A DNA stretch of 64,000 nucleotides from Vampirovibrio sp. (GTDB taxonomy: Bacteria > Cyanobacteriota > Vampirovibrionia > Vampirovibrionales > JAJTHC01), in the NCBI GenBank assembly GCA_050916035.1, contig CP050876.1, positions 135,923-199,922 on the forward strand. Direction: 5' to 3'. The notes under the pieces were generated by a model. The model was not told where the DNA came from, did no database searches, and saw nothing but the letters and a program-made list of their open reading frames with translations. A program made the position numbers and the translations under genes. This document shows, one piece after another, positions 2,576 through 51,930 of this stretch; position 1 is the first letter of the stretch, and the number at the start of each line of letters is the position of its first letter.

Positions 2576-3895
2576 ATGCCTCTATTTTCGGATGCCTCCT
2601 TTTCTATAGCGCCCACGGAGATTGTCGCCCTCTGTCAAGCCAATATCCTTACGCCCAACGGACTACTCAAAAATAGTACGCTTCAAATGCAGGGGGGATT
2701 CATTAAGTCAGTGGGTACGGATCTTCCTGTGGAGCATTTGCTGCGAGACGATGATATTCACCGTATTGAATTGAATCAAGATTTTTTAGTCACGCCAGGT
2801 TTAATTGACCTGCAGTTAAATGGGGCCTTTGGGATTGATTTTTCAACAGGACCCCTGCCTCAATTGCAACGCGTTTTGGACAGGCTCCCTGAATATGGGG
2901 TGACAAGCGTTTTGCCTACTTTGGTAACGGCACCAATTATGGAAATGGTCAATGCCAGCAATGCTTTAGAAGAATTACTTCATTTTAACCCACGGAGCCA
3001 AGGGGCCAAAGTGTTGGGGATTCATTTGGAAGGTCCGTTTTTAAATCCTCAAAAATGTGGAACGCATGCCAAATCGTCTATTATTCCGATGGATTTGTCC
3101 TATTTAGAGGCGTTGCTTTCTCCCCATGTGCGTATGGTTACCTACGCCCCTGAATGTGATGAGGGACTTCAAGGCTTGCAATACTTACAGGAACGAGGCA
3201 TTTTGGTCTTTGCAGGGCATACGCAGGCGGATCGTCAATGCTTGCAAAGTGCTATGGCCTTGGGATTAAAAGGTGTGACGCATTTATATAACGCCATGGA
3301 AGGCTTTCAATCACGACAAGTCGGCACAAGTTTACATGTGCTGAATGAACCCGATTTATGGGCCTCTATTATTGCGGATGGCTACCATGTGCATCCCGAT
3401 GTTTTAGAACTCACCTTACGAATTAAGGGTAAAGACCGTTTGATTTTGGTGTCGGATGCCATGCCTTTAGCGGGCTTAACTGAAGACAGTACCGTCATCT
3501 TTGCAGGAACTACGGTGTATAATCAGGCGGGTCGTGCGCTGAATACCGCGGGTCAACTGGCGGGGTCTACCCAGTTGTTGCCTGATATGATTCGTCGTTT
3601 ACTAGCGTGGAACTGGGCGTCTTTAGAAGCTGTTTTTCAATGGGCCACGTCTAACCCCGCTCGCTTATTAGGGATTGATCATGAGCGAGGCGCCTTGGCA
3701 GTGGGTTATCACGCGGATGTCGTTTTATGGCACCAGCCGACGATGAAAATTATGGCCACGTGGGTGGAAGGTCACTTAAGGTGGTGTGATCCCAGTCTAC
3801 TTGCTCCCCTTTCGCCCCCCACTTCCAAGGTTTCTCCTCCAGATTCCTCTCAAGCACCCACAGGGAAGCCTTATCACGCCCAGCTGACTTTATAG
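2576..3895 (+). CDS. nagA: N-acetylglucosamine-6-phosphate deacetylase
   Basis: PGLIDLQLNG, GIHLEGPFL, THLYNAM, IADGYHVHP, LVSDAM, LAGS motifs. Confidence 0.93.
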   Translation: MPLFSDASFSIAPTEIVALCQANILTPNGLLKNSTLQMQGGFIKSVGTDLPVEHLLRDDDIHRIELNQDFLVTPGLIDLQLNGAFGIDFSTGPLPQLQRVLDRLPEYGVTSVLPTLVTAPIMEMVNASNALEELLHFNPRSQGAKVLGIHLEGPFLNPQKCGTHAKSSIIPMDLSYLEALLSPHVRMVTYAPECDEGLQGLQYLQERGILVFAGHTQADRQCLQSAMALGLKGVTHLYNAMEGFQSRQVGTSLHVLNEPDLWASIIADGYHVHPDVLELTLRIKGKDRLILVSDAMPLAGLTEDSTVIFAGTTVYNQAGRALNTAGQLAGSTQLLPDMIRRLLAWNWASLEAVFQWATSNPARLLGIDHERGALAVGYHADVVLWHQPTMKIMATWVEGHLRWCDPSLLAPLSPPTSKVSPPDSSQAPTGKPYHAQLTL

Positions 3896-4200
3896 TGTTT
3901 TTAAGCTAAAAAGTGAAAGGTTCCCTCTTTGCAGTAATAGACGTCAACGCAAAAATCCGAGCGGGTGAGCGAATCCCAGAACGATTTTAAGCTTGTGCCG
4001 TCAGAGACCTTTTCGCGGAAAAAGGTCTCCAACACCTCTAAATCCGTTCAAGGGGGGACGGGGTAGGACGCATTGCGTTTCTCCTCCCCTTCGTCCCCCC
4101 TTGAAAATCCCCCCTCAATCCCCACCTCCTCGCATCATGTCCTTACACGACGTCCGCAAAATGTCTCGGAAGCCTCGCATTTAGTGCGTTGACGTCTGCT
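3893..4200 (-). repeat. Dispersed structured repeat, copy A (composite: core plus inverted end module)
   Basis: Shares GTCAGAGACCTTTT..AAAAGGTCTC..ACCTCTAAATCCGTTCAAGG..CCTTGAAAATCC..GACGTCCGCAAAAT with copies at ~23.1-23.4 kb and ~51.6-51.9 kb; 13-bp inverted repeats at 3939-3951 and 4185-4197. Confidence 0.9.
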
Positions 4201-4266
4201 TTAAAAATACGTCTGCCGTTTGGTAAGGAAGCATAAAACTCTAAAACAGGACGATATAACGTCAGA

Positions 4267-5382
4267 CTATTGGAGAGAGGATGTTTTTTCTCGTTGATGT
4301 AAATACTGTAAAATGGCATGGTTGGCCTTAGGAAAGGGGAGCGCTTCCATTTCTGCTAAAGACGCCCATCGAAAGGCTTGCGCCGCATTGAGTTCCAGTT
4401 GGCGAGGGGGCATGTTTAAATGTACATGAAAGACATGGAGCGTGACTTTAAGATGCGTATAGGCATGATCAATATCTAAGGCGTGCAACCCTACGGACAC
4501 TTCGATATTAAGCTCTTCTTTCAATTCACGTTGAATCGTTGCTTCTATAGATTCTCTAGCTTCTTGCTTGCCCCCAGGGAACTCCCATAAATTGGCCAAT
4601 AATCCTGTTTTGGGGCGTTGTTGAATAAAATAGGCTCCCGCTTCGTTTTGAAGAATGGCGACCCCAATATGCTTATAGGGCACTGCTTTAGGGGCTATTT
4701 TCACAGGCAAGGTTTCCACGCGGCCTTCTTGAAACGCACGGCAATGTTCAGGCAAGGGGCATAATAAACATTTGGGTTGTTTGGGCGTACAAATCACCGC
4801 CCCGAGTTCCATAATCGCTTGATTAAAGGTATAGGGATCTTGACTCGCCTCCAGTAAGCTTTGAATCCAAGTCCATTGTTTTTTTTCGGTGGCGGGTTGA
4901 TTGATCGGTGCCTCATCTCCCAAAAGCCGTGCTAAAATTCGCTTTACATTTCCATCCAACAAGGGGACGCGTTGATGATAGGCAAAACTTAAAATCGCTC
5001 CTGCCGTATAGCGTCCTACACCAGGCAAGGATAAAATGCTTTTCAACTCATGGGGGACCTTACCTTGGAAATCACGCACAACGACTTGGGCGGCTTCATG
5101 CAAGTGACGGCAACGCGAATAATAGCCTAGGCCTTCCCATTGCTTTAAAACGAATTCCGCAGGGGCTTGAGCGAGGGCTTCCACGGTGGGAAAGGTTTCC
5201 ATAAAACGAGAAAAATAAGGCAAGACCGTGACCACTTGGGTTTGTTGTAACATGATTTCGGATACCCAAATGGCGTAGGGATCGCTCGTGTTGCGCCACG
5301 GGAGGTCTCGCGCCTGTGCCAGATACCAAGGTTCTAGCAGGGCAGAAAAATAAGGTTTTAAACGCGCTAAGGATGCGTCCAA
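4267..5382 (-). CDS. mutY: A/G-specific adenine glycosylase with C-terminal Nudix domain
   Basis: WVSEIMLQQTQV, WEGLGYYSR, LPGVGRYTA (HhH), LDGNVKR, Fe-S motif CTPKQPKCLLCPLPEHC. Confidence 0.96.
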   Translation of the reverse strand: MDASLARLKPYFSALLEPWYLAQARDLPWRNTSDPYAIWVSEIMLQQTQVVTVLPYFSRFMETFPTVEALAQAPAEFVLKQWEGLGYYSRCRHLHEAAQVVVRDFQGKVPHELKSILSLPGVGRYTAGAILSFAYHQRVPLLDGNVKRILARLLGDEAPINQPATEKKQWTWIQSLLEASQDPYTFNQAIMELGAVICTPKQPKCLLCPLPEHCRAFQEGRVETLPVKIAPKAVPYKHIGVAILQNEAGAYFIQQRPKTGLLANLWEFPGGKQEARESIEATIQRELKEELNIEVSVGLHALDIDHAYTHLKVTLHVFHVHLNMPPRQLELNAAQAFRWASLAEMEALPFPKANHAILQYLHQREKTSSLQ

Positions 5383-5436
5383 GTAGGGGATCGCCTTTTT
5401 TGGGCCTATTCTTACTGTTTTGTCCGTGACACCCCT

Positions 5437-6771
5437 CTAGGGCGCATCCGTCTTATTAAAGAAGGGCAGAATATTATGCGTAATAATACGGGTTGAACGC
5501 TTTCCTGTTAAGTAGTTCACCAACCAGTTAAAGGTTACTACTGCACGGTTGTCATGCTCAACCAAGAACATGACATGAACAACAAGCCATAAGAACCACG
5601 CCACAAAACCATCAAACTCCAAGCCTTTGACACTGGCCACCGCTTTATTATTTCCGATAATCGCCATACTGCCTTTGTCTTCATAATCAAAATCAGGAAC
5701 GGCCAGTTCGTAAACTTTGGCCTTCAACACTTCCCCCACATAGATACCCCCTTGCGTAGCGGCTGGGGCCACACCAGGAAGGGGATTTCCTGTTTTAACC
5801 CCATGGGTTTGGTGAGCCAAATCACCCACCACATAAATATTGGAATATTTTTCTGTTGAAAAATCAGCGGTGACCATGACACGTCCCATACGGTCTGTTT
5901 CAGAGGCCGTTTTTTCCGCTACAATTTTACCCAAAGGTGATGCGCCAACCCCCGCTCCCCATAATACCGTATGTGTCTCTACGCGACGCTGATTTCCTTC
6001 ACGGTCTTTGAGTACCGCATGTTCGTGGCTCAGTTCGATGACGAGTGTCTTGGGTAATACTTCAATATGCAAGGATTCCAAGGCTTTTTGTGCAGAAACA
6101 GACAAGGCTTCTGAAAAGACGGGCAGGACTCGATCGGAGCCTTCGGCCACGATAATACGAAAATCAGACAATTGCGTGCGTCTAAATTGACCTTCTAAGG
6201 TACGTTGAACCAGTTCCGCGACAGAACCGGCCAATTCAACACCCGTTGGACCGCCGCCTACAATGACAAAAGTCAAATAGGCACGGCGTTTGACTTCGTC
6301 GTCTTCTCGTTCTGCCATTTCAAAGGCTTTTAGGATTTTTTCACGCATGTGTAAGGCATCATCTAAACTTTTGAGCCCTGGAGCAAATTCCGCCCATTCG
6401 TCTTTCCCAAAATAATGATGCAAGCTCCCTGTGGCAATAACGAGACTGTCGTAGTGAAGCTGACCATCGGTTAAGTCAATGCGTTGGGCATCTGCGTCTA
6501 AGCCCACGACTTCGCCCATAAATATTTCCGTATTGCGTTGTTTCCGTAAGACATAGCGAAAGGGAGAAGCGACATCCGAAGGAGATAAGCTCCCCGTGGC
6601 CACTTGGTACAATAACGGTTGAAATAAGTGATGATTGCGACGATCCACTAAAGTCACTTTGATTTTAGGGTCATTTGCCAAAGATTTAACACAGTTAAGG
6701 CCTGCGAATCCTCCGCCAACCACAACGACATGGTGACGAGTATCAAGGGGTGAAGAAGCAGAATGAGTCAT
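5437..6771 (-). CDS. ndh: Type II NADH dehydrogenase (NDH-2)
   Basis: GGGFAG, HLFQPLLYQVATG, GGGPTGVELAG, LPGVAPAATQGG, WLVVHVMFL. Confidence 0.93.
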   Translation of the reverse strand: MTHSASSPLDTRHHVVVVGGGFAGLNCVKSLANDPKIKVTLVDRRNHHLFQPLLYQVATGSLSPSDVASPFRYVLRKQRNTEIFMGEVVGLDADAQRIDLTDGQLHYDSLVIATGSLHHYFGKDEWAEFAPGLKSLDDALHMREKILKAFEMAEREDDEVKRRAYLTFVIVGGGPTGVELAGSVAELVQRTLEGQFRRTQLSDFRIIVAEGSDRVLPVFSEALSVSAQKALESLHIEVLPKTLVIELSHEHAVLKDREGNQRRVETHTVLWGAGVGASPLGKIVAEKTASETDRMGRVMVTADFSTEKYSNIYVVGDLAHQTHGVKTGNPLPGVAPAATQGGIYVGEVLKAKVYELAVPDFDYEDKGSMAIIGNNKAVASVKGLEFDGFVAWFLWLVVHVMFLVEHDNRAVVTFNWLVNYLTGKRSTRIITHNILPFFNKTDAP

Positions 6772-6939
6772 AGCGTTTTAGAAGGCTCCATAAATAGTCG
6801 TATATATATTAGACGTGCGTATCTTTCTAATTGTAACACAAGCGTCTTGAGAAAAAGCGTTGGCAGAGAGGAGTCATTCATTTTGTTTATGCTAAGATGG
6901 GTGTATAATTTTTATTAGCCGCCCCAAGGACCCTTTTAT

Positions 6940-7374
6940 ATGTGGAGAAAACCCTTTAAAAGCCCGAAATTATTGCGCTTTATTAGTATTGGTTTAGTGA
7001 CTACTCTGGTAGATGCGTTGGTCTATCGTTCAACGCTGGGGCATTTGAATATTTTTCTAGCCAAGGGCCTTGCCTTTGGTGCAGGCGTGTTTTTAAATTT
7101 TCTGGTGTCGGCGTTGTGGAATTTTAAAGTGCCTTTTAAGAAAATTACGGGTCACGTTTCAGATTTTTTCAAACTTTATCTGCTTTCAGGTACGCTCAAT
7201 GTTTGTTGTAATGCAGGTTTTTTCCATTTTCTTTTGTGGACGCATTGGGTCCCTAAAAACAAAGCCACCTTAGTGGCATGGTTAGGGGCGACACTCATTA
7301 CAGCGCTGTGCAATTACTTGGGACAAAGCTTGTGGGTATTTAAATCTTCTCCCTCCGTTGCAGTATTGTTTTAA
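6940..7374 (+). CDS. GtrA-family flippase-like membrane protein
   Basis: ~144 aa, four TM helices, RFISIG..TLVD, NFLVSALWNF and NYLGQSLWVF patterns. Confidence 0.85.
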   Translation: MWRKPFKSPKLLRFISIGLVTTLVDALVYRSTLGHLNIFLAKGLAFGAGVFLNFLVSALWNFKVPFKKITGHVSDFFKLYLLSGTLNVCCNAGFFHFLLWTHWVPKNKATLVAWLGATLITALCNYLGQSLWVFKSSPSVAVLF

Positions 7375-7413
7375 ACATTCTAAACGTCTTTCTTTGTGAA
7401 AGGTTTTCTCGTC

Positions 7414-9081: not shown

Positions 9082-9115
9082 AGTCACGCCCAAATTATTA
9101 ATCAGGTTAGACGCT

Positions 9116-9958: not shown

Positions 9959-10053
9959 AATTCTCAATCAATACCCTTGTTCAGTTGGTCTATTGTGGTC
10001 TGGCTAAGACGATTCAACACGTTTTTGACGACCTTAAACGTTAGGAGATGAAC

Positions 10054-12018
10054 TTAGCTGGTTTTTCGTTTCAGGAAAATCACGCCCAAAGGAGGCAAGG
10101 TTAAATTGAGGCTTTGGGCATGACCATGAAACCCAATCGCATCAGTCTGTAAATCAGGAGCGTTCATTTGTCCCGAACCCCCATATTGTAGCGCATCCGT
10201 ATTCAGTAATTCGACATAGTCGCCTGCTTGTGGGACACCTACACAATAATTATATTGCGTTTGTGGAGTGAAATTTCCCACAATGAGTATTTCATCCTGA
10301 GGGGCATGCCCACGGCGAATAAAGGCCATGACGCTATTTTCCGTGTCTTGGCAATCAATCATATAAAACCCTTCGGGATCCGTATCTTTTTCATGCATCG
10401 CAGGTTCTTGGCGATATAAGTGGTTTAAATCACGAATCAAGTGTTGAATGCCTTCATGACTTTGCCATTGTGTTAAATGCCAATCCACACTGGCTTCACA
10501 ATTCCACTCTTGCCATTGGCCAATATCACAGCCCATAAACAAGAGTTTTTTACCTGGTTGCGCCCATTGATAGCCGTATAAGGCACGCATGTTTGCAAAT
10601 TGTTGCCACATATCTCCTGGCATTTTCGACAAAATAGATTGCTTTCCATGCACCACTTCATCATGGCTTAAGGGCATACAAAAATGTTCGCTAAACATAT
10701 ATAAGCCCCGAAAGGTAATGCTATTTTGATGATATTTGCGGTGAATCGGGTCTTTAGAAAAGTATTCAAGGGTGTCGTGCATCCAACCCATATCCCACTT
10801 ATAATCAAAGCCTAGTCCGCCGTCTTTGGTCGGCTTGGTGACGCCTCCCCAACTGGTGGATTCTTCCGCAAACATAAGGACATCGGGGAAGCAATGGTGA
10901 ACAGCATCATTGAGGTCTCTTAAGAAATAAATGGCGTCTAAATTTTCACGTCCTCCGTAGATGTTGGGCTCCCACTCGCCTTCTTCACGAGAATAATCGA
11001 GGTACAACATGGAGGCTACCGCATCAACCCGTAGTCCATCAATATGGTATTTGTCTAACCAAAACAAGGCGTTAGAAATTAAGAAATTGCGAACTTCCCA
11101 ACGTCCATAATTAAAAATATTCGTTCCCCAATCTTGATGCTCTCGTTTTCGAGCATCTTCATGTTCGTATAAGTGCGTGCCATCAAAAAAGTCTAAGCCA
11201 TGTAAGTCTTTTGGAAAGTGAGCAGGTACCCAATCCACCAAGACTCCAATACCGTTTTGATGCAATTTGTCTACCAAGTATTTAAATTCATCGGGATTAC
11301 CAAAACGACTGGTGGGGGCAAAATAACCCACGGTCTGATACCCCCACGATAAATCATAGGGATGTTCTGCAATCGGCATAAATTCTACGTGAGTGTATTC
11401 CATAGAACGCACATAGTCGACCAATTTATCTGCCAATTCTAGGTAGGTCAACCAGCGGTTCTGATCTTCAGGCATGCGCATCCAAGACCCTAAGTGACAT
11501 TCATAAATCGAAACAGGACGTTCTGTGGAAGGGGTGGCCCCTCGATACGACATCCATTCTTTGTCTTCCCATTCATAGCGATCTAAATCCCATATTTTAG
11601 AGCCTGTGCAAGGGCGTTCTTCTGCAAAAAATCCCATAGGGTCCGCCTTTTCAACTTCGTAAAAGGTGGCGGCCGACTGAATGTAAAATTTATATGTTTC
11701 CCCCGCTGTTAAATGGGGAATAAAGCCCACCCAATAGCCTGATTCTTTTAAATTGTGCATGCCATGCGCTTGTTGGTTCCAACCATTAAAATCCCCTGTG
11801 ATGGAGACCGCTTGTGCATTAGGCGCCCAAACGCAGAAATGAACCCCTTTAGTGCCATCAGTATCCTGCGTTAAGTGAGCACCGATTTTATTATACATTT
11901 GCAAGTGCTTACCTTCTCGCAACAAATAGAGGTCATATTCGGTAATAAAGTCGGTGACCCGAAGCGATTGATCCAGCATGATTTTTTCCTTGTTGTCCGA
12001 AATAAAAAGCGTTTGCAT
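10054..12018 (-). CDS. glgB: 1,4-alpha-glucan branching enzyme
   Basis: VWAPNA, IYECHLGSW, SWGYQ, DWVPAHFP, GLRVDAVASMLY, AEES, LSHDEVVHGK; alternative start 11979. Confidence 0.97.
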   Translation of the reverse strand: MQTLFISDNKEKIMLDQSLRVTDFITEYDLYLLREGKHLQMYNKIGAHLTQDTDGTKGVHFCVWAPNAQAVSITGDFNGWNQQAHGMHNLKESGYWVGFIPHLTAGETYKFYIQSAATFYEVEKADPMGFFAEERPCTGSKIWDLDRYEWEDKEWMSYRGATPSTERPVSIYECHLGSWMRMPEDQNRWLTYLELADKLVDYVRSMEYTHVEFMPIAEHPYDLSWGYQTVGYFAPTSRFGNPDEFKYLVDKLHQNGIGVLVDWVPAHFPKDLHGLDFFDGTHLYEHEDARKREHQDWGTNIFNYGRWEVRNFLISNALFWLDKYHIDGLRVDAVASMLYLDYSREEGEWEPNIYGGRENLDAIYFLRDLNDAVHHCFPDVLMFAEESTSWGGVTKPTKDGGLGFDYKWDMGWMHDTLEYFSKDPIHRKYHQNSITFRGLYMFSEHFCMPLSHDEVVHGKQSILSKMPGDMWQQFANMRALYGYQWAQPGKKLLFMGCDIGQWQEWNCEASVDWHLTQWQSHEGIQHLIRDLNHLYRQEPAMHEKDTDPEGFYMIDCQDTENSVMAFIRRGHAPQDEILIVGNFTPQTQYNYCVGVPQAGDYVELLNTDALQYGGSGQMNAPDLQTDAIGFHGHAQSLNLTLPPLGVIFLKRKTS

Positions 12019-12224
12019 GATGAGAGGTATCCCTTCTTTAATCCACACTAAAGCGTCGCCATGGGTAAAGCATGTTTGTCCTAGCGAATGGCGCCTGATT
12101 TAAAAAATAGTCTACCTCACCTTAGCTTAGTGTAGCATGATTTGTCACGAAAGACACCTGATTTGGATGATTTTTATGAGGGGCATCTCTTTTTGATGCG
12201 CTAAAAATTGTTTCAGTGACCTAT

Positions 12225-15200
12225 TTAATCTAAGGACAAAATATCTTTGAGATCATCTAAACTTATTTTTTTGGAAATGGAACGATCCGCTGAAATGACG
12301 CTATCCACTAAGTCTCGTTTTTGAGATTTTAATTGCATAATGCGCTCTTCCACGGTGGAGCGTGCAATCAGGCGATACACAAAGACACTCTTGGTCTGAC
12401 CAATACGGTGAACCCGATCAGTGGCTTGGTCTTCTGCCGCGGGGTTCCACCAAGGGTCGTAATGTACCACCATGTCTGCTCCCGTCAGGTTTAAGCCCGT
12501 TCCTCCTGCCTTTAAAGACACCAAAAATATTTTAATGGATTCATCTTCATTAAAGCGGTCCACGCGAGGTTGTCGCTCTTCCGTTTTGGTTTGACCGGTG
12601 AGTATTTCGTAGCGAATGCCTTTTTGCTTGAGCCAGGATTCTGCAATTTTAAGCATTTTGACAAATTGGCTAAATAATAAAATACGGTGGCCGTTTTCAA
12701 TGCCTGTTTCCAATAATTCTTTCAGCATTTCAAACTTGCCCGATTCATGGAGGCCTCCTGATAGTTCAGGTCCAATTAAGGCGGAGTGGTTGCAGACTTG
12801 TCGAAGCTTTGTGAGGGCAGCAAATACATGTTGCTGATTGATTTTTCCACCTTTCGCAATGGCTTCTTCAATGAGTTCTTCACGAGCTTTTTCGAGCACA
12901 TCCAAGTACAGTTGGCGCTGGTTGTCGGTCAAGTCACAGAATAAGACTTGTTCCATTTTAGGGGGCAAGTCTTTTAACACATCTCGTTTCATACGACGGA
13001 GAATAAAGGGGGACACTTGCTTCTTTAAGCGATGTCCTGCATCCAAACTGCCCCGCTCTTCAATGGGTTGGATATAACGCCTGCGGAAATCGTCAAAATC
13101 CTCTAAAAATCCAGGCATTAAGAAATCAAAGATGCTCCAGAGTTCGCTGAGGCGATTTTCAATCGGTGTGCCTGAAAGTGCTACACGGTGTTGAGACTGC
13201 AACATTTTGGCCGCTTGTGCGGTTTGAGACGCCATATTTTTAATCTGTTGGGATTCGTCTAAAATGGCAAAGCGAAAGGGGTAGTCTTTAATCGCGTTGA
13301 TGTCTCGGCGTAAAATCGCATAACTGGTAATGACCACATCGGCATCTTTAATCTGTGAATATTGATCATAACGATCGGATCCCGTGAGATCAATGACGTT
13401 TAATTCAGGCGTAAAGCGTTTGATTTCATTTTGCCAATTGCGGACCAAAGTGGTGGGGCAGACAATAATCGAAGGAAATGCTCCATGTTTGTTACGCGCT
13501 TGTTGAATGGCGACCAAGGCTTGTAAGGTTTTCCCTAAGCCCATATCATCCGCTAAAATCCCGTTTAGGCCATACGAATATAAAAACCATAACCACTGAA
13601 AGCCCCGTTCCTGATAAGGTCTTAATTCGGCGACCACATTGCTTGGCACACTTAATTCTTCCATGGGTTTGCCCGCGGTCATAATGTCCCAAAAGCGTTG
13701 AAACTTTTTAGACATGTCTAAGACGACTTTCGCATCCACCAATTCCATCAATAAGCCCGCTTTATACGTGGGGATTTTATAAAAATCGGTTTCTAAAATT
13801 TCAGGTTCAAAGGCTTGAATGGTACGACCCACGGCCAAAAGGGTATGCAACGGGACTTCTACAAAGCCTGTGCCTTGGACATAAAAATATTTCTTCCCTG
13901 CCACCATCTGTTTTTGAATTTCGGTCATCGAAATACTTTTCGCCCCCAAACGAGCTTCCAAGCGTAAAGTGAAAAAGGTCACGGATTCATCAAATTCCAA
14001 GCGGGCGACAATGTTTAGAGCCGTTCGAGAGGCTTGAAGCAGGGTTATTTCTTGGGGATTGAGGACGTTGATAATCCATCCTTCTTTTTCCCAGCGAGGG
14101 AGGAACACATTGTATAAATCAACCGCTTCATCGCCTTCCGCCATGAGGGCATAAGCCTGCATGAGTTGAGAGGAGGCTTGACTCACGCGTTCCCACGCTT
14201 TTTCTTCAAAGTCAAAATCTCGTTTATACCAGGTGGTCTTATTCTTCTTTTTATTGGTCGAGGCTAAATAAGGGGACTGTTTGGCTTTTTTGGCATAAGG
14301 AATGCGGGTTTTATCATAATTAAAATGAAGAACCAAACGTAAACGCATCGCGGCAGGGTCGAGCATCTCAATGTTAAGCGAAGGAATCGGGGCTTGCGAC
14401 ATTTTTTTCAGTGCATCGGCCACCATGCTGTCGTCGACAGGAAGTAACTTGCGTAAATTGGGCAAGACTTCAAAAAGAAAGGAGGCACTGTCTTGCATGG
14501 GGACATCCGTAAAGGTCCCCTGCTTTAAGGCCTTGGGTAATTTACTTAAAACAGGTTGAATCGGATAAATCCGCTGTAAATGCTTGCCCCATGTCGCTTT
14601 GGGGTCTAATAATTCTACTTCTTCTAAAGGGAAAATAGAGTGGGCCATTTGAGAAGATGCGGGCTTTCCTAAAATGGGGGGTGTTTCAAACTGACACCAA
14701 TGCATCGCAAGCGTGCTTTGTCCGTTACTGTTTTGATGTACTTCCAGTAAAGGCATTAATGCTTGTGTTTCAATCGCTAAGCGCAGGCCTTTTTCATCGA
14801 CCACTTCTTCACAGCGAGACAAGAGCGGCAGGAATTCATCAAATAACTCAAAGGGGATGAGCATCCAACCGTTATTAGACACTTGCTTAATACGGTGTTG
14901 TTCTAAAAATTGTAGAATACTAATGTCTTGGCGTGCTTCAGGCACTTGGCTCCACGGGGTCCCATCAGGATAGGCCGCCGTCAAGGCTCGACGCAATAAT
15001 TTTGTCGGATCAGCACACCAAGCGTCTCGTTCGCGTTCAATTAAACGTAAGCCCACTCCCTTGCTTTTATTGTACGCAAAATGCACTTGTTGCTTTAAAA
15101 TACCCATCGTCCTGCCAAGGGCCTGTAAGTCTGGGTCTTCTTCAGGGAGGTTCCAATACACTTCCCATAGGCGTTGTTCTGAAATACTTAAGGCCACCGC

Positions 15201-23119: not shown

Positions 23120-23437
23120 AGAGGCTCTTTTTTGGATGGCTGGTTTTCGTTTCGAGCTTGTGCCGTCAGAGACCTTTGCGCCGCCAAAGGTCTCTGACAC
23201 CTCTAAAGCGGTTCAAGGAGGGGGAAAGAAAAGGAAATCGTTGCGGCTCTCCTTCTCTTCCCCCCTCCTTGAAAATCCTCCCCCCTACTCATCCTTTTCG
23301 CTTGCCCCACTCGCTCCCGTGGGACGTCCGCAAAATCGTTCGGGGATTCGCAATCCGCTCACCCGCTCGGATTTAGTGCGTGAACGTCTGTTACTGCAAC
23401 GATTTAAAGCCTCTCGTTTTTTAGATGAAAAACACTA
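23120..23437 (-). repeat. Dispersed structured repeat, copy B
   Basis: Aligns over its length with the reverse complement of 51625-51930 and with 3893-4200; lies between convergent hemL and the permease gene. Confidence 0.9.
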
Positions 23438-35585: not shown

Positions 35586-35667
35586 AGGCTCTTTTCGTTT
35601 TAAGCTGGTGACGTCAGAGACCTTTTCGCGGAAAAAGGTCTCCAACACCTCTAAATCCGTGAACGGA
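35586..35667 (-). repeat. Dispersed structured repeat, partial copy D
   Basis: CGTCAGAGACCTTTTCGCGGAAAAAGGTCTCCAACACCTCTAAATCCGT is identical to the same stretch of copy A. Confidence 0.85.
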
Positions 35668-36298
35668 CTAAATGTTCGACGTCACGCTTTAATTCACCGC
35701 TCAAGCGTTCTTCTAAAATAGGCATGGATTCATTCACCTGTGTGTCATGACCTATTTTTAACCACTGACTATGGGTCGGGCTTTCCGTTAAAATATAGTC
35801 TTCCCCATGAATACGCAACCAATGCAGGCGCGTCCCCGTTGCTAAGACTTGTGAATCTAACGCTTGCAACCATGTGGATTCTCGGACGGCTTCAGGGGGG
35901 ATTCGATTTAAGGCAGGAGAGATGATGGCCCCTGACGGCTGCCCCCGCATCCATGGGAAGGCGGTCAACCCATCAGGCAAACGAACGGATTGCCACATGG
36001 CACGCGGTAAGGAAACGGATGCGTCAAGGTGGAGGGCTTGTACCCGACGGGCCCATGCCAAGAACCACGCTTGGCGCAACACAAAAATACCTAATCCACC
36101 CACCAATAAGGTATTAAAAAAAATCATACCCCATTGAACACCGCCTTCTCCTTCGGGGGAAGCGCTTTCGGAAGGCTTTAAAAGTTCTGCCAACGGAATA
36201 TTTTCTTCCGCATGAAGGACCTGAAGTCGAGGGCTTATCCAAGTCAAGAGACACGCCACAGTAAGTAAGGCATATAAAAAAGAAAGGGGTCGTTTCAT
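35651..36298 (-). CDS. FliO-like flagellar export accessory protein
   Basis: Signal peptide, one TM, C-terminal LQALDSQVLATGTRLHWLRIHGEDYIL resembling the FliO beta domain. Confidence 0.5.
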   Translation of the reverse strand: MKRPLSFLYALLTVACLLTWISPRLQVLHAEENIPLAELLKPSESASPEGEGGVQWGMIFFNTLLVGGLGIFVLRQAWFLAWARRVQALHLDASVSLPRAMWQSVRLPDGLTAFPWMRGQPSGAIISPALNRIPPEAVRESTWLQALDSQVLATGTRLHWLRIHGEDYILTESPTHSQWLKIGHDTQVNESMPILEERLSGELKRDVEHLVRSRI

Positions 36299-38036: not shown

Positions 38037-38050
38037 GGCGTGTCACGCTC

Positions 38051-43585: not shown

Positions 43586-43618
43586 ATGACCGTTTCCGCT
43601 TCTGCGTGAGACGGTCAT
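43586..43618 (+). terminator. Stem-loop after the TPR gene
   Basis: ATGACCGT...ACGGTCAT. Confidence 0.45.
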
Positions 43619-43781: not shown

Positions 43782-44267
43782 ATGACACAATTTCAATCTA
43801 AAATCACGTTGTCGCTTATGTTGATGGCGTTGCTATTTCAGGTCACGGCTCACGCAGCGGCACCTCTTAACAGTTCTATGATTAAACCGATCACCGTCAG
43901 TTCGACTCAATTGGTGAAAGAACCCAGTACTTATCTTAAAAAACAAGTGGCATTTACGGGCGTTATTGCAGGATTCAGTGCCTTGGGTCTGAACTATCCC
44001 CCCATCAAACATGATGTGAAAGACTATGTGACCCTTTTACTGTATCGTGCCGATGTTCCTCCTCAGTATGAAATCCCTTTAAGTGAACTGAAGATTTTTG
44101 TCAACCGTCGTCTATTGAAAAACATTAAACGCATTGGACAAGGGGACACGGTTAAAGTCACAGGCACCATTATTTCGACGGCTTTGGGGGATGCATGGCT
44201 TGAAGCGTCTCAACTCACCGTGATTAAATCCGTCCAAGAAGCGGATAAAAATTTAGACGACGAATAA
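43782..44267 (+). CDS. Secreted protein, probable OB fold
   Basis: Signal peptide (AHA); VAFTGVI and GDTVKVTGTI pattern. Confidence 0.7.
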   Translation: MTQFQSKITLSLMLMALLFQVTAHAAAPLNSSMIKPITVSSTQLVKEPSTYLKKQVAFTGVIAGFSALGLNYPPIKHDVKDYVTLLLYRADVPPQYEIPLSELKIFVNRRLLKNIKRIGQGDTVKVTGTIISTALGDAWLEASQLTVIKSVQEADKNLDDE

Positions 44268-44282
44268 GGGTTTTTCACGATT

Positions 44283-46381: not shown

Positions 46382-46465
46382 GTCGCCCTTTCTCTCTCAT
46401 CCTCTTCCACAGGATTACTTAATACCATGGATTACTTTATTTTTTAATACGCAAGAAACAAATCC

Positions 46466-47506
46466 TTAGGTAATGTAACTGTCTTCATCCTTACTGCGTG
46501 CGATTTGAATTTCACCCGCCGCTTCAAGTCCACGAATAACCCCAACAATCATGGTTTGCTTTTCTGAAACATCCTTGGCTCGAACCGCACCCATAAATTC
46601 CATATCATCTTTTAGCATGGCCGAAGCACGTTCCGACATATTGGCAAAAACAATTTGTTGAACCTCTTCTTTCGCACCCTTTAAGGCCAAGGCCAAATCC
46701 TTGGTTTCTACTTCGCGCAAAATACGTTGAACCGTTCGGCCATCGAGATTGGCTAAATCTTCGAATACAAACATCAAGCCACGAATGGTTTCTGCCATTT
46801 CAGGGTCACGCATTTCCATGTTATCCAAAATTGATTTTTCGGTGGTACGGTCGCTGTAATTCAGAATTTCAGCCAACGATTCCACACCACCTGTTTGCGT
46901 AAAGTCACCCGTCATGACATTAGAAAACTTCATTTCCATAATGGTTTCTACTTCACGCAATACATCTGGATTGGTGCGGTCCATGACCGCAATACGAGAG
47001 GCAATTTCCACTTGTAATTCAGGGGACAATAAAGACAAAATCGATGCGGAGCGCTCGGGTTGTAAATAAGACAAGACCAAAGCCACCAATTGTGGATTTT
47101 CATTCTGAAAGGAAGAGGCCAATTGAGTCGGATCCACCTTGTTAAAGAATTCAAACGGCGTATTTTGCATCGACTGTACCAGTTTTTCTAGAATTTTAGA
47201 CGCCCGTTCTTCTCCTAAGGAATCCGTTAATATTTCTCTTGCATACGATACCCCACCCGACACTAAATACCCTTGCGCTTCAAACAACACATAAAATTCC
47301 GTCAACACTTCGGTAAATACTTCTGGTGCCACATAATCCATGGACGCAATATGAAAGGCCAACCGTTCAACTTCTGCTTCATCTTTAATATGCTTCATCA
47401 CTTCAGCCGCCGTCCCAGGCCCCAAGGAAATCAATAGACAGGCCACTTTGTGAACATACGTCAATTGTTCAATACTTGTAATTTGAGTTTTAGCTTCTTT
47501 GGCCAT
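46466..47506 (-). CDS. fliG: Flagellar motor switch protein
   Basis: GGVSYAREIL, ENPQLVALVLSYL, GGVESLAEILN, MFVFEDL, NMSERAS. Confidence 0.97.
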   Translation of the reverse strand: MAKEAKTQITSIEQLTYVHKVACLLISLGPGTAAEVMKHIKDEAEVERLAFHIASMDYVAPEVFTEVLTEFYVLFEAQGYLVSGGVSYAREILTDSLGEERASKILEKLVQSMQNTPFEFFNKVDPTQLASSFQNENPQLVALVLSYLQPERSASILSLLSPELQVEIASRIAVMDRTNPDVLREVETIMEMKFSNVMTGDFTQTGGVESLAEILNYSDRTTEKSILDNMEMRDPEMAETIRGLMFVFEDLANLDGRTVQRILREVETKDLALALKGAKEEVQQIVFANMSERASAMLKDDMEFMGAVRAKDVSEKQTMIVGVIRGLEAAGEIQIARSKDEDSYIT

Positions 47507-47759
47507 GACACCTCACGGATCGCTTTAAAAGGGAAGGGGCTTCGTCTGTTTGAGTAGTTTCCTTATTGTAGCTAATTTTTAAGCGCTTGTCTTTCCGTTC
47601 CTTCAAGTGACCTATTTTTAAAATCAGAGGCAAAAAATCATTTATTAGGGGGATAGGTTCAAAAGGGGTTCTAATGCTTTAATAACGACAATGCCTGAAT
47701 GACTTAAAATGGGGATGCAGCCCCCAGAGACTTGCAAAGAGACTAAGGATGCCTACCCC

Positions 47760-49280
47760 ATGATGAATCCCCTATGGCAAAGCCTTCCTATTCACGGACG
47801 CAAGGGTCTTATTCTCGCTAGTCTTATTTTAGGGATGTCAACCACAATTGGACATGCCACCACGATTGAACATATTTCCCTCAACAAAGAAGAGAATGGT
47901 AAGCTTCATATCAACGTCAATGTCTCTGGTAATGCGGCCGAATTCAAGCCCCAAGAACAAGAACATGAAGGCGTTTACACACTGGATTTAGTCGGGAAAA
48001 CGTCGGAACAAGTGCGCTCCACCCCTTTGATTATGGATGCCACCGGACAGCATATTGCACGTTTAAATGTTGAAAGTGGTAAGCTTTCCGTCGTTTTACC
48101 AGGTGTACACACCCAAGATGTACAAGTTCATATGAAATTAAACCCCCTTGACCACTCCACGACCCAATCAAGCGTCCCTCAGTTGTCGACGTTTGCTTTA
48201 AGCCCTCAAGGCTCTCGTTCCCTCATGGACTATCCCCCCTTGGAAGCCGATGTGCATTTAAACGCTTCTTCCCCTTCTAAAAAACTCAAGCCTAAGCTCC
48301 ATGCGTCTCATCACCGTAAAAGAAGTACACCGTTCAAACAACGCTCCTTCTCACCGAGCCCTTCAAAAGCTCAAATGATTCCTTCTTCCGGTTCAGAGGT
48401 ACCAGAAATTGAAACGCCCCGTCAGGAGGAGGTCTCTTCTTCTCAAAATTTAAATGCTGTAGAGACATCTCCTTTGCTCAACAAGGACTCGCTTTTTTCT
48501 GAAGTCCCCGTGACGGAAAGTCTTCCCCCTCTTGAAAATTTACAGGCGGAACCCGCTCCTCCTATAGAAGTGGTTATTGCGCCTGAAGAAGCCTACCAAC
48601 GTTATCTTCGCCTCCCTTGGCAGAGAGAAGACTGGATTAATGCACGTGTAGCTGCCCACTTGACCCAGATAGAAGCCAAACAGTTCAACACCCTTTTATG
48701 GCAAATAGCGATGGTTTTAACAGGCCTGCTGGCCAGTATGGGGGCGGTCATTTTCATCAAAAAAAATCCAAAAGGCTTTAGCCCGTGGCGTCGCAATACG
48801 AAGGTGACCTCCACAGAAACCGCCCCCCCTACCCCCTTTACTGAAGACGACAAACCTTTTGCCAGCTGGTTATTGCCCAACGCCACAGAAGAAGACAGCC
48901 CCACGCCTTCTTTTTTAGAGGAAACGGCTGAAGAAGACCTCATTCCGCTGGATGCGCTTTCAAGCTTAACGGGCAATAGTATTTTTAGCGCCCCCGCTCC
49001 TTCGATGAAGATTCCTTCGCTTGAAGTAGAAGAAGAAGTACCTTTACCCCTCACCGAAGTGAAGCCTATAGATCCCCTCCCTGAAAAAATGAACACCCCT
49101 AAAGTGGGGCAGCTTAAAGCCCCCAGTTATTTTGCCTTTCGTCATCAACAAAGCAGTCGTCAACCCGTCGTGCGTCCCAATACTCTGAAAACGATTACTG
49201 TGCCCCCTCAAAATGCTCCCTCCTTTACAGGTGCATCAACAGAACATTATGAACGTTTAAACCGCGTTCATTTTGGGTAA
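47760..49280 (+). CDS. Hypothetical bitopic membrane protein with N-terminal beta (AMIN-like) domain
   Basis: Signal peptide, beta-rich ~90 aa, Pro/Ser/Glu linker, single TM, disordered tail; divergent from fliG. Confidence 0.7.
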   Translation: MMNPLWQSLPIHGRKGLILASLILGMSTTIGHATTIEHISLNKEENGKLHINVNVSGNAAEFKPQEQEHEGVYTLDLVGKTSEQVRSTPLIMDATGQHIARLNVESGKLSVVLPGVHTQDVQVHMKLNPLDHSTTQSSVPQLSTFALSPQGSRSLMDYPPLEADVHLNASSPSKKLKPKLHASHHRKRSTPFKQRSFSPSPSKAQMIPSSGSEVPEIETPRQEEVSSSQNLNAVETSPLLNKDSLFSEVPVTESLPPLENLQAEPAPPIEVVIAPEEAYQRYLRLPWQREDWINARVAAHLTQIEAKQFNTLLWQIAMVLTGLLASMGAVIFIKKNPKGFSPWRRNTKVTSTETAPPTPFTEDDKPFASWLLPNATEEDSPTPSFLEETAEEDLIPLDALSSLTGNSIFSAPAPSMKIPSLEVEEEVPLPLTEVKPIDPLPEKMNTPKVGQLKAPSYFAFRHQQSSRQPVVRPNTLKTITVPPQNAPSFTGASTEHYERLNRVHFG

Positions 49281-49308
49281 AGACACGATAAAACATGAAA
49301 AACGCCTG

Positions 49309-49665
49309 CTAGGCCATGCCTTGAAAACGGGGTAAACCTTCTGGAGGGAATTGACTACGGCCAAACCCAAATTCATTCAGGCCCCCAAAATTACCAAAGG
49401 TTTGTTGTGGATTAATTTGAGGCGTTTGCTGATAACGATACATTGCAATACTTTGTAAGGCATTGGCCTGTAAGCTTGCAAAAGGCGTGGGAAGGGGCTC
49501 GCCTATTACACTACGTTGCTGAAAGGAAAGTGGCGAATATCTGTCGTTTTGATACGGCGAAAAAGACGCGTATTGGGCTGGAGAAATCGCCATACCTGAT
49601 AAATTATAATTCCAAGGGTAAGCGTTTGAACTGGGTTCACTAAATACGAGATTCATCCCACTCAT
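49309..49665 (-). CDS. Hypothetical low-complexity protein
   Basis: TAAGGA RBS; Gln/Pro/Phe/Ser-rich. Confidence 0.6.
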   Translation of the reverse strand: MSGMNLVFSEPSSNAYPWNYNLSGMAISPAQYASFSPYQNDRYSPLSFQQRSVIGEPLPTPFASLQANALQSIAMYRYQQTPQINPQQTFGNFGGLNEFGFGRSQFPPEGLPRFQGMA

Positions 49666-49755
49666 GTGCGTGTCCTTATGCGTTCATCGTCCCTATAGGT
49701 ATAAAACCCAAAGGATTCAAAACTTGTGCGGAAGACGCTTGTGGACGCCCCATTT

Positions 49756-50616
49756 CTATACGACAGGGGTCACCAAAAAACACACGCCATACAACAGATA
49801 CATGGCCCCCGCGACCAAAATCAAGGTAATGGGATCCTGACTCGGGGTGGCCACTGCCGCAATTAGGAGCATCCCTACAAAGCTTTCTTTCCAATAGCGT
49901 TTTAAAGTCGCTCGCTTCAACAGTTTTAAGCGACCCAGCAAGAACGCCAATAAAGGCATTTGAAAGGTCAGACTCATGACTCCTATTAAAGTCACGGCAA
50001 AACCAATATACGGTAGTAGGCTCATTTGAGGCACCGCCACCCCTTCAGAAAATTGAAAAAGCACTTGTAGCGTTAAAGGCAGTACCGCGAAATATCCAAA
50101 GACTCCGCCGATGAGGCCCCCTCCTGTCGCAAGCCCTAAGGCGGGCATCAACCATGCGCGTTCTTCCAAGGTCAGGGCAGGAAGTAAGAAACGACACGCC
50201 TGCCACAACGCGACAGGCAAGGTCAACACGCTCCCGATTAAAAGCATGATTTGAAAAATACCCAGTAGCGCATCCGTCGGGGCGTGTTGCACGAATTGAG
50301 TCGCCGAAGGGGCTAAGCGTTGTAAGTGATGTAAAGCGGGTTTGGCGACAAAGTAACTCCCCCCTATGGCAAGCACCCAAACGGCTATCGTCCAGCCCAA
50401 ACGCCAACGGAGCTCTTCAATATGAGGGAGCACCCCTTCATCCCAACGTTTTAGCGCCCATTTCCATAAATCTTGGGGCGTTTCAATACGGGCCCAGTCT
50501 TCTTCTAAAGAGGAGGGGGGAACCGTCGCATGAGAAGCATTTAAGGCGTCTGATTCAGGGACTTGCGTGGGGGGGCGTAAATGAGGCGGTAAGGCATCCA
50601 ATGCTTTAAGATCCAT
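49756..50616 (-). CDS. tatC: Twin-arginine translocase subunit TatC
   Basis: HIEELRWRL, FLLPALTLEER, FQMP, AAVATPSQDP. Confidence 0.9.
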   Translation of the reverse strand: MDLKALDALPPHLRPPTQVPESDALNASHATVPPSSLEEDWARIETPQDLWKWALKRWDEGVLPHIEELRWRLGWTIAVWVLAIGGSYFVAKPALHHLQRLAPSATQFVQHAPTDALLGIFQIMLLIGSVLTLPVALWQACRFLLPALTLEERAWLMPALGLATGGGLIGGVFGYFAVLPLTLQVLFQFSEGVAVPQMSLLPYIGFAVTLIGVMSLTFQMPLLAFLLGRLKLLKRATLKRYWKESFVGMLLIAAVATPSQDPITLILVAGAMYLLYGVCFLVTPVV

Positions 50617-51460
50617 GGGAGGCTCCCTTTACAGTCGCACTAAAGAAATGATGAAGCATAAGACTACCCGTTACCCCTACATTTAAGGATTCAGCCACAT
50701 CGGTCATGGCGACACTTAAAACGGGAAAGGCTTTTTTTTCTAAAGCACTCAAACGAAGTCCCTGCCCTTCCTGCCCCAAAACTAGGGCCAGCCCCTGAGT
50801 GGCGGAAGGATTGAATTCATGAAGGTATTGCCCCTGAGCATGCCCGTCTTCAAACGCGTCCGCCAAATAAACATGCCAACCCTGACGCCCCAAGGCATGG
50901 AGGGCTTCTGCAGTTGTAGGGGGGCGGTAGCTTTGAAGCTGAAGTCTAAATTGTAACCCAATAGAGGAGCGAATCACTTTGGGGGACCAGACATCCACCG
51001 CGGGTTCTAAAACCAGCACGCGCTTGACGCCAAAGGCCACGGCACTACGTAACAAGGTCCCCATATTACCAGGGTCTTGTACACCATCTAAAACCAACAG
51101 ACGCTCTTGCGGGTCAAGCGGCCGTGGGAGCTCTTCCGCCGACTGAAGCTGCGCCTGCTGAGGCAGAGACATCACCGCGACCATAGACGGTGCGGAATCG
51201 GTTTCTGCCAGTGTTTTTAGCAAGGCTTCTGTGAGGGGGTGACAGGGTAAGGCAGGTGCAAACGTGTTTGGTGACAGCAAAACGTCTTCGCGGATAAAGA
51301 CGCGTTCGAGGGGAAGTCCCGCTGCTTGAGCTTCTTTGATGGCTTTTTCCCCGACGACCAAAAGCTGCCCCATGGCCATACGATGCTTACGTTGATGCAG
51401 GGCCAGCCCCGCTTTAAAGTAGGGATTTTGTCGACTACGAATGAGTTCAGCAACAGGCAT
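50606..51460 (-). CDS. TrmH/SpoU-family RNA methyltransferase
   Basis: SRQNP, LDGVQDPGNMGTLLRSA, LGQEGQG, AESLNV. Confidence 0.92.
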   Translation of the reverse strand: MPVAELIRSRQNPYFKAGLALHQRKHRMAMGQLLVVGEKAIKEAQAAGLPLERVFIREDVLLSPNTFAPALPCHPLTEALLKTLAETDSAPSMVAVMSLPQQAQLQSAEELPRPLDPQERLLVLDGVQDPGNMGTLLRSAVAFGVKRVLVLEPAVDVWSPKVIRSSIGLQFRLQLQSYRPPTTAEALHALGRQGWHVYLADAFEDGHAQGQYLHEFNPSATQGLALVLGQEGQGLRLSALEKKAFPVLSVAMTDVAESLNVGVTGSLMLHHFFSATVKGASHGS

Positions 51461-51624
51461 AAGATGAAGACTTCCCTAAGCAAGCGAGCGACTACTCGAC
51501 ACCCCTTAGCATACCCAAAAGACCCTCGTCGCGCCAGCACCCATTTATATGGATAGGCTTCCTCACCAAATGGACCAAATGGCGGACGTGTTTTCAAAGT
51601 AAAGGGGGTACGTGGAAGAATGTA

Positions 51625-51930
51625 TAGTGCTTTTCCGCCAAAAATTGAGAGGTTTAACCCTTGCACCTTAAATCGTTGCACAAACCGACGTCCACGCACT
51701 AAATCCGAGCGGGTGAGCGCATGGCGAATCCCCGAGTGATTTTGCGGACGTCCGACGGGAGGGGGTGGGGCAAGCGAAAAGGATGAGAAGGGGGGAGGAT
51801 TTTCAAGGAGGGGGGAAGAGAAGGAGAGCCGCAACAATTTCCTTCTTTTCCCCCTCTCCTTGAACGGATTTAGAGGTGTTGGAGACCTTTTTCAGCGAAA
51901 AGGTCTCTGACGCCACAAGCTCAAAACGGA
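51625..51930 (+). repeat. Dispersed structured repeat, copy C
   Basis: Reverse-complement match to copy B across its length. Confidence 0.9.

Follow-up and report, generated by a model that had tools for sequence, protein, structure and literature searches.

A genus-specific composite intergenic repeat of Vampirovibrio with a hairpin and mirror tract in the layout of a putative intrastrand triple helix

Introduction

One of the closest described counterparts of the repeat reported here is TM_ECO, also known as BoxC or PIT elements, a 37-nt class II purine-motif unit with 3610 copies in 262 proteobacterial genomes (PMC4666352). The available part of that source describes TM_ECO as strictly intergenic and unlinked to mobile elements, with a triplex that is stable in vitro, no promoter or terminator activity, and an association with more rearrangement between E. 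coli strains (PMC4666352). We analyzed a 64,000-nt stretch of the Vampirovibrio sp. genome (contig CP050876.1, G000:C1:135923-199922; "the window" below means this whole stretch), in which an earlier examination, the sequence-only reading, had noticed four copies of a dispersed repeat, here called A to D. The repeat is composite, and one of its hairpins, together with the pyrimidine tract that follows it, has a predicted intrastrand triple-helix layout.

Intrastrand triplexes use one of two motifs. The pyrimidine motif is favoured by acid and consists of C+.G-C and T.A-T triads, while the purine motif is independent of pH and consists of G.G-C, A.A-T and T.A-T triads (PMC4666352, available part). 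Pyrimidine-type intrastrand triplexes are possible in RNA, and the same part of the text states that the purine motif is not formed in RNA (PMC4666352). A second point of comparison is offered by the CGTC-tagged REPs, which have stems of 8-9 bp with A-T first pairs, loops of 4-5 nt and a CCA tail, and which, as far as the available text goes, are apparently without a dedicated transposase (PMC3733652). Judged by titles and the beginnings of abstracts, none of the literature found on repeats in Vampirovibrio dealt with the present subject.

Results

The genome that holds the window (G000) has 49 loci of the family to which copies A to D belong; it is a single contig of 2,037,776 bp with 45.5% G+C and 96.6% completeness. 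The census used copy B as seed for three nhmmer rounds, and the resulting 104 matches merged into the 49 loci. The family is genus-specific, non-coding, composite and intergenic, with copies of 250-440 nt. When copies are oriented alike, their modules stand in a fixed order: end module, hairpin H1, hairpin H2, tract 3, hairpin H3, end module. A leader ending in ..GCTGGTGACGTC lies upstream of H1, which reads GTCAGAGACCTTT..AAAGGTCTC and has a stem of 10-13 bp and a loop of 5-6 nt. H2 is bounded by TTCAAGG and CCTTGAA, its 5' arm being purine and its 3' arm pyrimidine, with arms of 15-25 nt. After H2 come the spacer AAT, a second pyrimidine tract (tract 3), a linker and H3, which is bounded by GACGTC and measures 48 nt in its short form and 66 nt in its long form. 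There are two end modules: Y, which ends in ..AAAARCACTA, and X, which contains ..CCGTTTGGTGAGGAAGCCTATTA and recurs inverted at the opposite side of X-type copies, the two X ends being about 65% alike when inverted. Every genomic occurrence of the module motifs falls within the 49 loci (H1, 48 of 48; H2, 36 of 36; the 5' half of H3, 39 of 39).

Tract 3, read outward from the spacer, is the pyrimidine arm of H2 backwards, and this holds in all five sequence variants. G000 holds H2 variants a, b and c, each with its own matching tract, and variants d and e come from sister species. Across 107 unique copies (19 others, which carry a nested insert, were set aside), the mirror is identical at 17.6 of the first 22 positions. 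Shuffling the letters of tract 3 gives 10.2 +/- 2.0, with 0.5% of shuffles getting to 16; comparing the tract with the unreversed arm gives 11.2; and dealing the tracts out among copies gives 14.2 +/- 0.23, with a maximum of 14.8 in 500 deals. Taken one by one, the mirrors of variants a, b and c are each reached by 0 of 2000 composition-preserving shuffles, that of e1 by 23 of 2000 and that of e2 by 12 of 2000; the mirror of the short variant d is not significant by itself. The mirror tract after the long hairpin escaped the sequence-only reading, and it gives the element the layout of a putative intrastrand triplex. To our knowledge, mirror repeats are the product of no copying mechanism, and a triple helix is the only structure that requires them.

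Sequence changes are also matched across three strands. In 94 of 105 copies, arm and tract agree in the length of the C-run adjoining the spacer. Where variant c copies have TT in place of TTT, the base is missing from purine arm, pyrimidine arm and tract together, a sub-variant of b has a C-to-T change at the mirrored position, and e1 and e2 differ on three strands at once (AAGGGA/TTCCCT/TTCCCT vs AGGGA/TCCCT/TCCCT). In variant c, the pyrimidine arm has a 3-nt bulge, TCA, opposite which tract 3 reads the exact complement, TGA, antiparallel and in Watson-Crick register. H2 and tract 3 have what appears to be an intrastrand triple-helix layout, with the three-strand match kept across the five variants.

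On the C-rich strand the blocks run purine, pyrimidine, Hoogsteen pyrimidine (class III, pyrimidine motif), and on the G-rich strand they run reverse-Hoogsteen purine, purine, pyrimidine (class I, purine motif). Departures from the mirror number 472, and in 221 of them a T in the arm faces an A in tract 3. On the G-rich strand these would be T.A-T triads, which the purine motif allows, so the deviations favour that strand. Positions compatible with purine-motif triads number 15 of 25 in variant a, 21 of 24 in b, 15 of 27 in c, 10 of 14 in d, 16 of 29 in e1 and 17 of 28 in e2, with up to 19 in succession in b. The three blocks thus obey the triad rules of PIT/ITxF-type motifs. The element falls outside the limits of the ITxF search (stems of 6-15 nt, loops of 1-6 nt and no more than one mismatch), as its spacer TTGAAAAT has 8 nt and its arms exceed 15 nt and contain bulges; an ITxF finder would probably miss it.

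Family copies do not code for protein, because the lengths of H2 (57, 62, 63, 64, 65, 66 and 69 nt in 126 unique versions) differ by steps that are not multiples of three and stops occur in all six frames at 38 of the 49 loci. Crude open reading frame (ORF) calling put spurious ORFs of at least 80 aa in 16 loci. The predicted RNA folds of copy B reach -104.4 kcal/mol on the + strand (z -4.6) and -127 on the - strand (z -6.4), and that of copy A reaches -100.6 kcal/mol (z -4.6); in each of these tests 0 of 100 shuffles were equally stable. Rfam models found only 4 tRNAs in the window, with no family match at the gathering threshold, in keeping with the sequence-only view of a structured, non-coding, dispersed family outside the known ones. 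With E values up to 5 allowed, the best match had 34 bits against a threshold of 90 and came from miRNA hairpin models on H2; such matches were rejected as generic to long hairpins.

Pairing within the hairpins is kept through sequence change, as had been proposed for the central stem: the versions quoted for A and B each pair with their own partner. From 98 unique near-full copies, 70 were taken at even spacing along the score ranking, nested-insert copies being excluded, and their alignment gave 34 RNAalifold consensus pairs across H1, H2 and H3. Six of the 34 change on both sides, as in G-C 36/U-A 24, C-G 51/U-A 17, A-U 45/G-C 22 and G-C 36/A-U 34. The arms of variants a, b and c fold with their own partners at -37.7, -41.5 and -32.9 kcal/mol, and chimeras fold at -20 to -34. 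Own arms fold best in a and b, but not in c (-32.9 vs -34.2 with the arm of b). The hairpin covariation alone is moderate, because own arms are not the best for c and low complexity lets chimeras fold fairly well.

Modules vary in number and direction. H1 is present in tandem, two or three times, at c11, c25 and c34. H2 is flipped in place at c07 (332186-332436), c22 (1050359-1050590) and also L109, where the loop AAATTGTTGCGGCTCT reads AGAGCCGCAAyAATTT and the flanking orientation is unchanged; such a flip is the outcome expected from recombination between cruciform or hairpin arms. A nested hairpin-rich insert of about 115 nt (core GGGAAAGAAAACCGTTGGTTTCC) occupies tract 3 of c15, c20, c26, c27 and c39. 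It recurs at loci L056, L135, L182, L309 and L312 and in 19 of 126 unique H2 contexts, lying right after the C-run of tract 3 in variants a and c and within the pyrimidine arm in d. Its core has 6 matches in G000, 5 of them inside family loci, and the insert resembles a small element in its own right, a second one with the C-run or the putative triplex region as its target.

Searches with copy B as query detected the family in all 9 other genomes of the genus, and none of 31 genomes from other genera gave a match (9 belonging to the same family and 22 to the same order). Together with the 49 loci of G000, the hundreds of copies in sister genomes bear out the sequence-only expectation of many more copies genome-wide, and such numbers greatly exceed chance. 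The window density that had led to it, 4 copies per 64 kb, is about 2.6 times the genome average (49 per 2,038 kb). An H1-core scan of public genomes returned at least 104 stretches, and 79 of 80 fetched loci fit the family profile; the remaining one, on a Cocleimonas contig, is a chance hairpin. Among the public loci listed, 72 lie on seven assemblies titled "Vampirovibrionales bacterium" and 7 (L308, L313, L334, L354, L362, L369, L370) on the metagenome-assembled genome (MAG) JBEISK01, titled Gammaproteobacteria. In JBEISK01, variants a, b, c and d are all present as complete elements, on contigs up to 126 kb, and its taxonomic label is therefore probably wrong. No match to the family appeared in the plasmid and phage collections searched. 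Among 22 listed sequencing runs there was no RNA run that contained the sequence, and the best DNA runs shared 0.21 of its words.

Many contigs of the sister MAGs G001-G008 start or stop within family copies. The family is therefore a main cause of assembly breaks in the genus.

All 49 loci are intergenic, mostly just after gene 3' ends. By crude longest-ORF calls, 18 lie in convergent, 24 in tandem and 7 in divergent spacers, against 340, 1139 and 339 of the 1818 spacers of the genome. In tandem spacers the copy lies closer to the 3' end of the upstream gene (typically 20-120 nt) than to the next start. Orientation on the replication strand (30 vs 19) is not significantly biased. The element interior, and not only its ends, is conserved between species: the best cross-species element matches are 82-92% identical, compared with 70-76% for flanking genes, and in H2 of variant a one bulged base differs across species.

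Element sites differ between close genomes. G004 has flanking DNA 95-96% identical to that of G000, and at the site of copy A it lacks a 291-nt core bounded by two GACGTC and has 20 nt of other sequence instead. The site of copy C is without the H1 module in G004. At the site of copy D, G004 has an element that matches in position and orientation and has a nearly identical H1, but its H2 is of variant a and its H3 is short; these other forms indicate that modules are exchanged at orthologous sites. The site of copy B falls at contig ends in G004, and the 16 kb of genes between copies C and D aligns in one piece. A locus-by-locus comparison covered 101 sequences of 722,885 bases, about 40% of the fragmented G004, and placed both flanks of 7 of the 49 loci on one contig, copy C among them. 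Three of the loci, c15, c20 and c27, all of the nested-insert subfamily, are wholly absent from G004; c18 is present in it, and at c08 and c46 G004 has about 700 bp more. The family is thus mobile now or was so formerly, as the sequence-only reading had it, since whole copies are present or absent between close genomes. Unrelated indels also separate G000 and G004, so no statistical weight is placed on the instability of element sites.

The junctions of c15, c20 and c27 lie in A/T-rich DNA with TA on both sides in 3 of 3. One of the three has an imperfect 8-bp direct repeat (AATTTTGT/AATTTTAT); the other two give no readable duplication, so that the comparison of empty and filled orthologous sites, suggested as a check by the sequence-only reading, yielded no clean target duplication. 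GACGTC was considered as a recombination or target site. The 49 loci contain 89 of the 586 GACGTC sites of the genome, two such sites bound the core of copy A that G004 lacks, and 6-mer palindromes of other sequence are equally frequent genome-wide.

Other differences from G004 were seen in the window. Between copy D and the tRNA at 52633, the orthologous G004 site lacks about 550 bp (51950-52500). Near 1462-1471, G004 has about 320 extra bp (G004:C141:1061-1381) that resemble the N-terminus of a type IV pilin-like protein (..KKAFTLVELLVSLGVLGLIATLTLPQ..); this stretch is not a member of the repeat family. About 4.2 kb at 10629-14893 has no G004 match at E 1e-40 and is either specific to G000 or unassembled in G004.

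In the window, the four copies lie where the sequence-only reading placed them (Table 1), as the sequence itself and the repeat search attest: a 73-nt direct family at 3985-4057, 23150-23222 and 35598-35670, and inverted matches of B with D (187 nt at 91%) and of A with D (69 nt at 96%). The motifs named at the time are present as well, namely the TAGTGyTTTT ends, the GAGACCTTT..AAAGGTCTC hairpin, TTCAAGG..CCTTGAA and the ..AAATCCGAGCGGGTGAGCG module. Copies A and B sit between convergent ORFs. The ORF at 2576-3895 scores as N-acetylglucosamine-6-phosphate deacetylase (nagA), its stop codon being the TAG at 3893-3895, as had been noticed, and mutY is convergent with it across copy A. As a correction to the sequence-only reading, the left ~90 nt of copy A (3893-3985) are an inverted copy of the right part of B and D (H3 half and end module), and copy A is therefore rearranged rather than collinear. 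In its predicted fold, the two arms GACGTCAACGCA (at 3940) and TGCGTTGACGTC can close a 13-bp long-range stem around H1 and H2.

Table 1. Modules of the four repeat copies in the window
Feature	Positions	Strand	Remark
Copy A, variant a, whole composite	3893..4240	+	X-type end 4197-4240
Copy A, Y-type end remnant	3893-3939	+	
Copy A, inverted half of long H3	3940-3985	+	Followed by leader, H1, H2, tract 3, short H3
Copy A, hairpin H1	4000..4033	+	GTCAGAGACC..GGTCTCCAAC
Copy A, hairpin H2, variant a	4047..4105	+	Purine arm, loop, pyrimidine arm (TTCAAGG..CCTTGAA)
Copy A, spacer AAT and tract 3	4106..4133	+	Mirror of H2 pyrimidine arm; candidate third strand
Copy A, hairpin H3, short form	4149..4196	+	GACGTC-bounded
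Copy B, variant b, whole composite	23120..23437	+	Y-type right end ..AAAAACACTA
Copy B, hairpin H1	23165..23198	+	
Copy B, hairpin H2, variant b	23212..23273	+	
Copy B, spacer and tract 3	23274..23301	+	Mirror of pyrimidine arm
Copy B, hairpin H3, long form	23323..23388	+	
Copy C, partial (leader and H1 only)	35592..35683	+	H1 35613-35646; GACGTC flanks at 35610, 35678
Copy D, variant b, inverted	51553..51930	-	H1 51878-51911; H2 51802-51864
Copy D, tract 3 and long H3	51774-51801; 51687-51752	-	
Copy D, Y-type end and X-type end-like stretch	51625-51686; 51553-51595	-	

Discussion

The family is new but its kind is known: it is a mosaic intergenic repeat specific to one lineage, and its behaviour is that of a non-autonomous element. 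The patterns described above make it probable, in our view, that a composite repeat has spread in trans and been homogenised, and that its transient hairpins and triplex promote rearrangement. Copies would have spread as DNA with an enzyme supplied in trans and would have been homogenised through recombination between copies. Hairpins and triplex could arise transiently in single-stranded or supercoiled DNA, during replication, transcription or repair. These transient structures may stall polymerases and promote the local rearrangements seen at the sites, as proposed for E. coli TM_ECO. A stronger version, which we offer only tentatively and consider less likely than not, is that selection keeps H2 and tract 3 as a purine-motif triplex of 15-20 triads on the G-rich strand when that strand is unwound, and that this triplex, not the hairpins, would be the working part.

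Several observations weigh against these proposals. Variant d taken alone is not significant, as 587 of 2000 shuffles reach its mirror. A chimera of a b hairpin and an a tract has a mirror of 8 of 22, several single copies are changed on one arm only, and two copies have a flipped H2. The copies are related, so counts overstate independent events; about six matched changes were counted. The three most recently moved copies carry the 115-nt insert in tract 3, and an unbroken tract is therefore not needed for mobility. Searches for RAYT genes, IS ends, Y ends and junctions turned up no mobilising enzyme, clear terminal inverted repeat or target duplication. Finally, the available part of the TM_ECO study reports that no stable TM_ECO triplex was detected in vivo (PMC4666352).

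The repeat might be a plain miniature inverted-repeat transposable element (MITE), a deletion derivative of an insertion sequence (IS) moved in trans by a TA-duplicating DDE transposase, with the inner hairpins as passengers. Like bacterial MITEs, it is small and non-coding and is present or absent as a unit between genomes 95% identical, its X-type ends are imperfect inverted repeats, and TA stands at both junctions in the three clean cases, one with the imperfect 8-bp repeat. Two TA-flanked IS families are moreover highly active in G000, with about 29 near-identical copies of an 844-bp IS5-like IS (ISa) and about 12 of an 830-bp IS (ISb), and the sequence-only reading had named a TA-targeting IS as a possible mobiliser. 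That proposal loses ground to the ends of ISa and ISb, which show no significant similarity to element ends; their only match is an IS that adjoins copy c28. A parent IS with the same ends was thus not found among these. A likeness of the X ends to the ISb end (ACCAA..ACGG) failed in blastn-short (13 nt, E 1.8).

The distribution of the two IS families also speaks against a MITE. At the DNA level, ISa was found in 4 of 10 genus genomes and ISb in 3 of 10; beyond G000 and G004 these are fragments or weak matches of ISa in G002 and G008, and ISb in G009. The same DNA-level search did not find ISa or ISb in G001, G003, G005 and G007, which have dozens of family copies each, although MAGs often lose IS. 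Y ends occur 14 times, all within the 49 loci, so none flanks a gene. Two of the three junctions have no readable duplication. Unlike in bacterial MITEs, the interior is conserved more than the ends, and inner modules share in the conservation across species. We regard a plain MITE as unlikely. As a separate observation, the window holds at 54848-55331 a 484-bp partial ISb (ends TAGAACCAATACGG.. / ..CCGTATAAGGTCTA) that is 100% identical to full copies.

Could the element instead act in RNA, as a 3'-untranslated-region element that stabilises or ends the upstream transcript, possibly through a pyrimidine-motif RNA triplex? Its position 5-120 nt past stop codons, its enrichment at convergent and depletion at divergent genes, and the strong predicted folding of both strands would suit such a role, and pyrimidine-type triplexes are within reach of RNA (PMC4666352, available part). 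Against it, copies in tandem spacers point with the upstream gene in 8 cases and against it in 16 (not significant), so no single RNA sense is kept, and copies A and B contain no promoter- or terminator-like site. Given the same two results, nothing speaks for a free-standing ncRNA gene, which the sequence-only reading had considered. Copies are also gained and lost between near-identical genomes, and the dominant T-to-A departures fit the purine motif, which, by the available text, RNA does not form (PMC4666352). An RNA function is accordingly quite improbable in our judgement.

The mirror itself might be a by-product of low-complexity C/T sequence, or of selection for a G-quadruplex or i-motif, with no triplex involved. 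On the G-rich strand, four or more G runs are present in variants a, c, d and e, the mirror of variant d does not exceed its shuffles, chimeric arms still fold fairly well, and for TM_ECO, according to the part of the source available, a quadruplex had to be excluded by nuclear magnetic resonance (PMC4666352). However, the best mirror, with its 19 consecutive triad-compatible positions, belongs to variant b, in which just two long runs are present. Some of the matched changes are at T/A positions or are single-base deletions, on which a quadruplex places no constraint, the reversed alignment beats the direct one (17.6 vs 11.2), and variants a, b and c beat 2000 of 2000 shuffles. We give this explanation little chance.

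The position after gene 3' ends recalls a REP/REPIN-type element, and so do the CGTC tag, perfect palindrome and CCA-like tail of H1, reminiscent of CGTC-tagged REPs (PMC3733652, available part). Such an element would be copied by a RAYT (Y1/HUH) transposase, another enzyme that had been suggested to act in trans, through recognition of hairpins in single-stranded DNA. This reading is largely refuted and most improbable, since PF01797 has 0 matches in G000 and, among the 10 genus genomes, 1 weak match (20 bits) in one of them, whereas matches were obtained in 6 of 14 control genomes. The H1 stem and loop are moreover not those of 8-9 bp stems with A-T first pairs, and replication-strand bias is absent.

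The preferred reading, a mosaic repeat with a putative triplex module, places the family beside several known systems. Like TM_ECO, it is dispersed, highly conserved and intergenic, three blocks on one strand obey triad rules with the purine motif on the G-rich strand, no link to transposon, phage or plasmid is known, and loci are rearranged between close strains (PMC4666352, available part). The two differ in build: TM_ECO has 9-nt stems of class II (pyrimidine, purine, reverse-Hoogsteen), whereas the Vampirovibrionales arms measure 15-25 nt and are class I on the G-rich strand, so that the predicted module has about double the length, arranges its blocks in the opposite order and sits inside a 250-440-nt composite (PMC4666352). 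The TM_ECO triplex was demonstrated in vitro, whereas that of the Vampirovibrionales module is predicted from sequence; conversely, the three-strand covariation across variants found here is not one we have seen reported for TM_ECO in the available text (PMC4666352). The TM_ECO consensus, CCCTCNCCC N3-6 GGGNGAGGG N3 GGGNGAGGG, has 0 matches on either strand of G000.

In their ordered hairpin modules, variants, variable content, position after genes and want of a cognate transposase, the copies resemble BIME/REP of E. coli and NIME/dRS3 of Neisseria (PMC4666352, PMC3733652, each from its available part). The ordered variants, the module swap at copy D and the tandem H1 modules place the family among mosaic intergenic repeats of the BIME/BOX/NIME type. 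BOX of pneumococci is a mosaic intergenic repeat of the same general type. Unlike BIME, BOX and NIME, the present family has longer modules, no sequence relation to them, and a whole composite that is one unit of insertion and deletion. We know of no counterpart of the triplex-type module in BOX or NIME.

H1 shares with CGTC-tagged REPs the unpaired 5' CGTC, the perfect palindrome, the CCA-like tail (CAAC) and the location downstream of tandem or convergent ORFs (PMC3733652, available part). Its stem and loop sizes lie outside the limits of that family (8-9 bp and 4-5 nt), and it stands singly in a composite, not in head-to-head dimers (PMC3733652). As in the mirror repeats of H-DNA, the duplex contains a pyrimidine mirror repeat, made up of the pyrimidine arm, spacer TTGAAAAT and tract 3; unlike in these, an additional complementary purine arm would let one strand supply all three strands, and the tract is interrupted (PMC4666352, PMC11667243, available parts).

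The role of intrastrand triplexes in bacterial cells has been an open question since PIT/BoxC, and, in the available part of the source, no function was found for TM_ECO (PMC4666352). The Vampirovibrio family offers diverged variants in which purine arm, pyrimidine arm and third tract change together. Covariation of this kind is the type of evidence that established RNA secondary structures, and these natural compensatory mutants make the triplex question testable. Should the triplex reading fail, the family would be a further mosaic repeat of a single lineage and its interest modest. The analysis also documents the main assembly-breaking repeat of uncultured, non-photosynthetic relatives of the cyanobacteria. 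If the stronger version given above is true, the triplex would be, for example, a programmed pause or break site that drives module exchange and the gain and loss of copies, or a structure recognised by the mobilising enzyme. This would then be the first natural repeat family in which the importance of a nucleic-acid triplex to a living bacterium is shown by three-strand covariation, over five variants and in several species.

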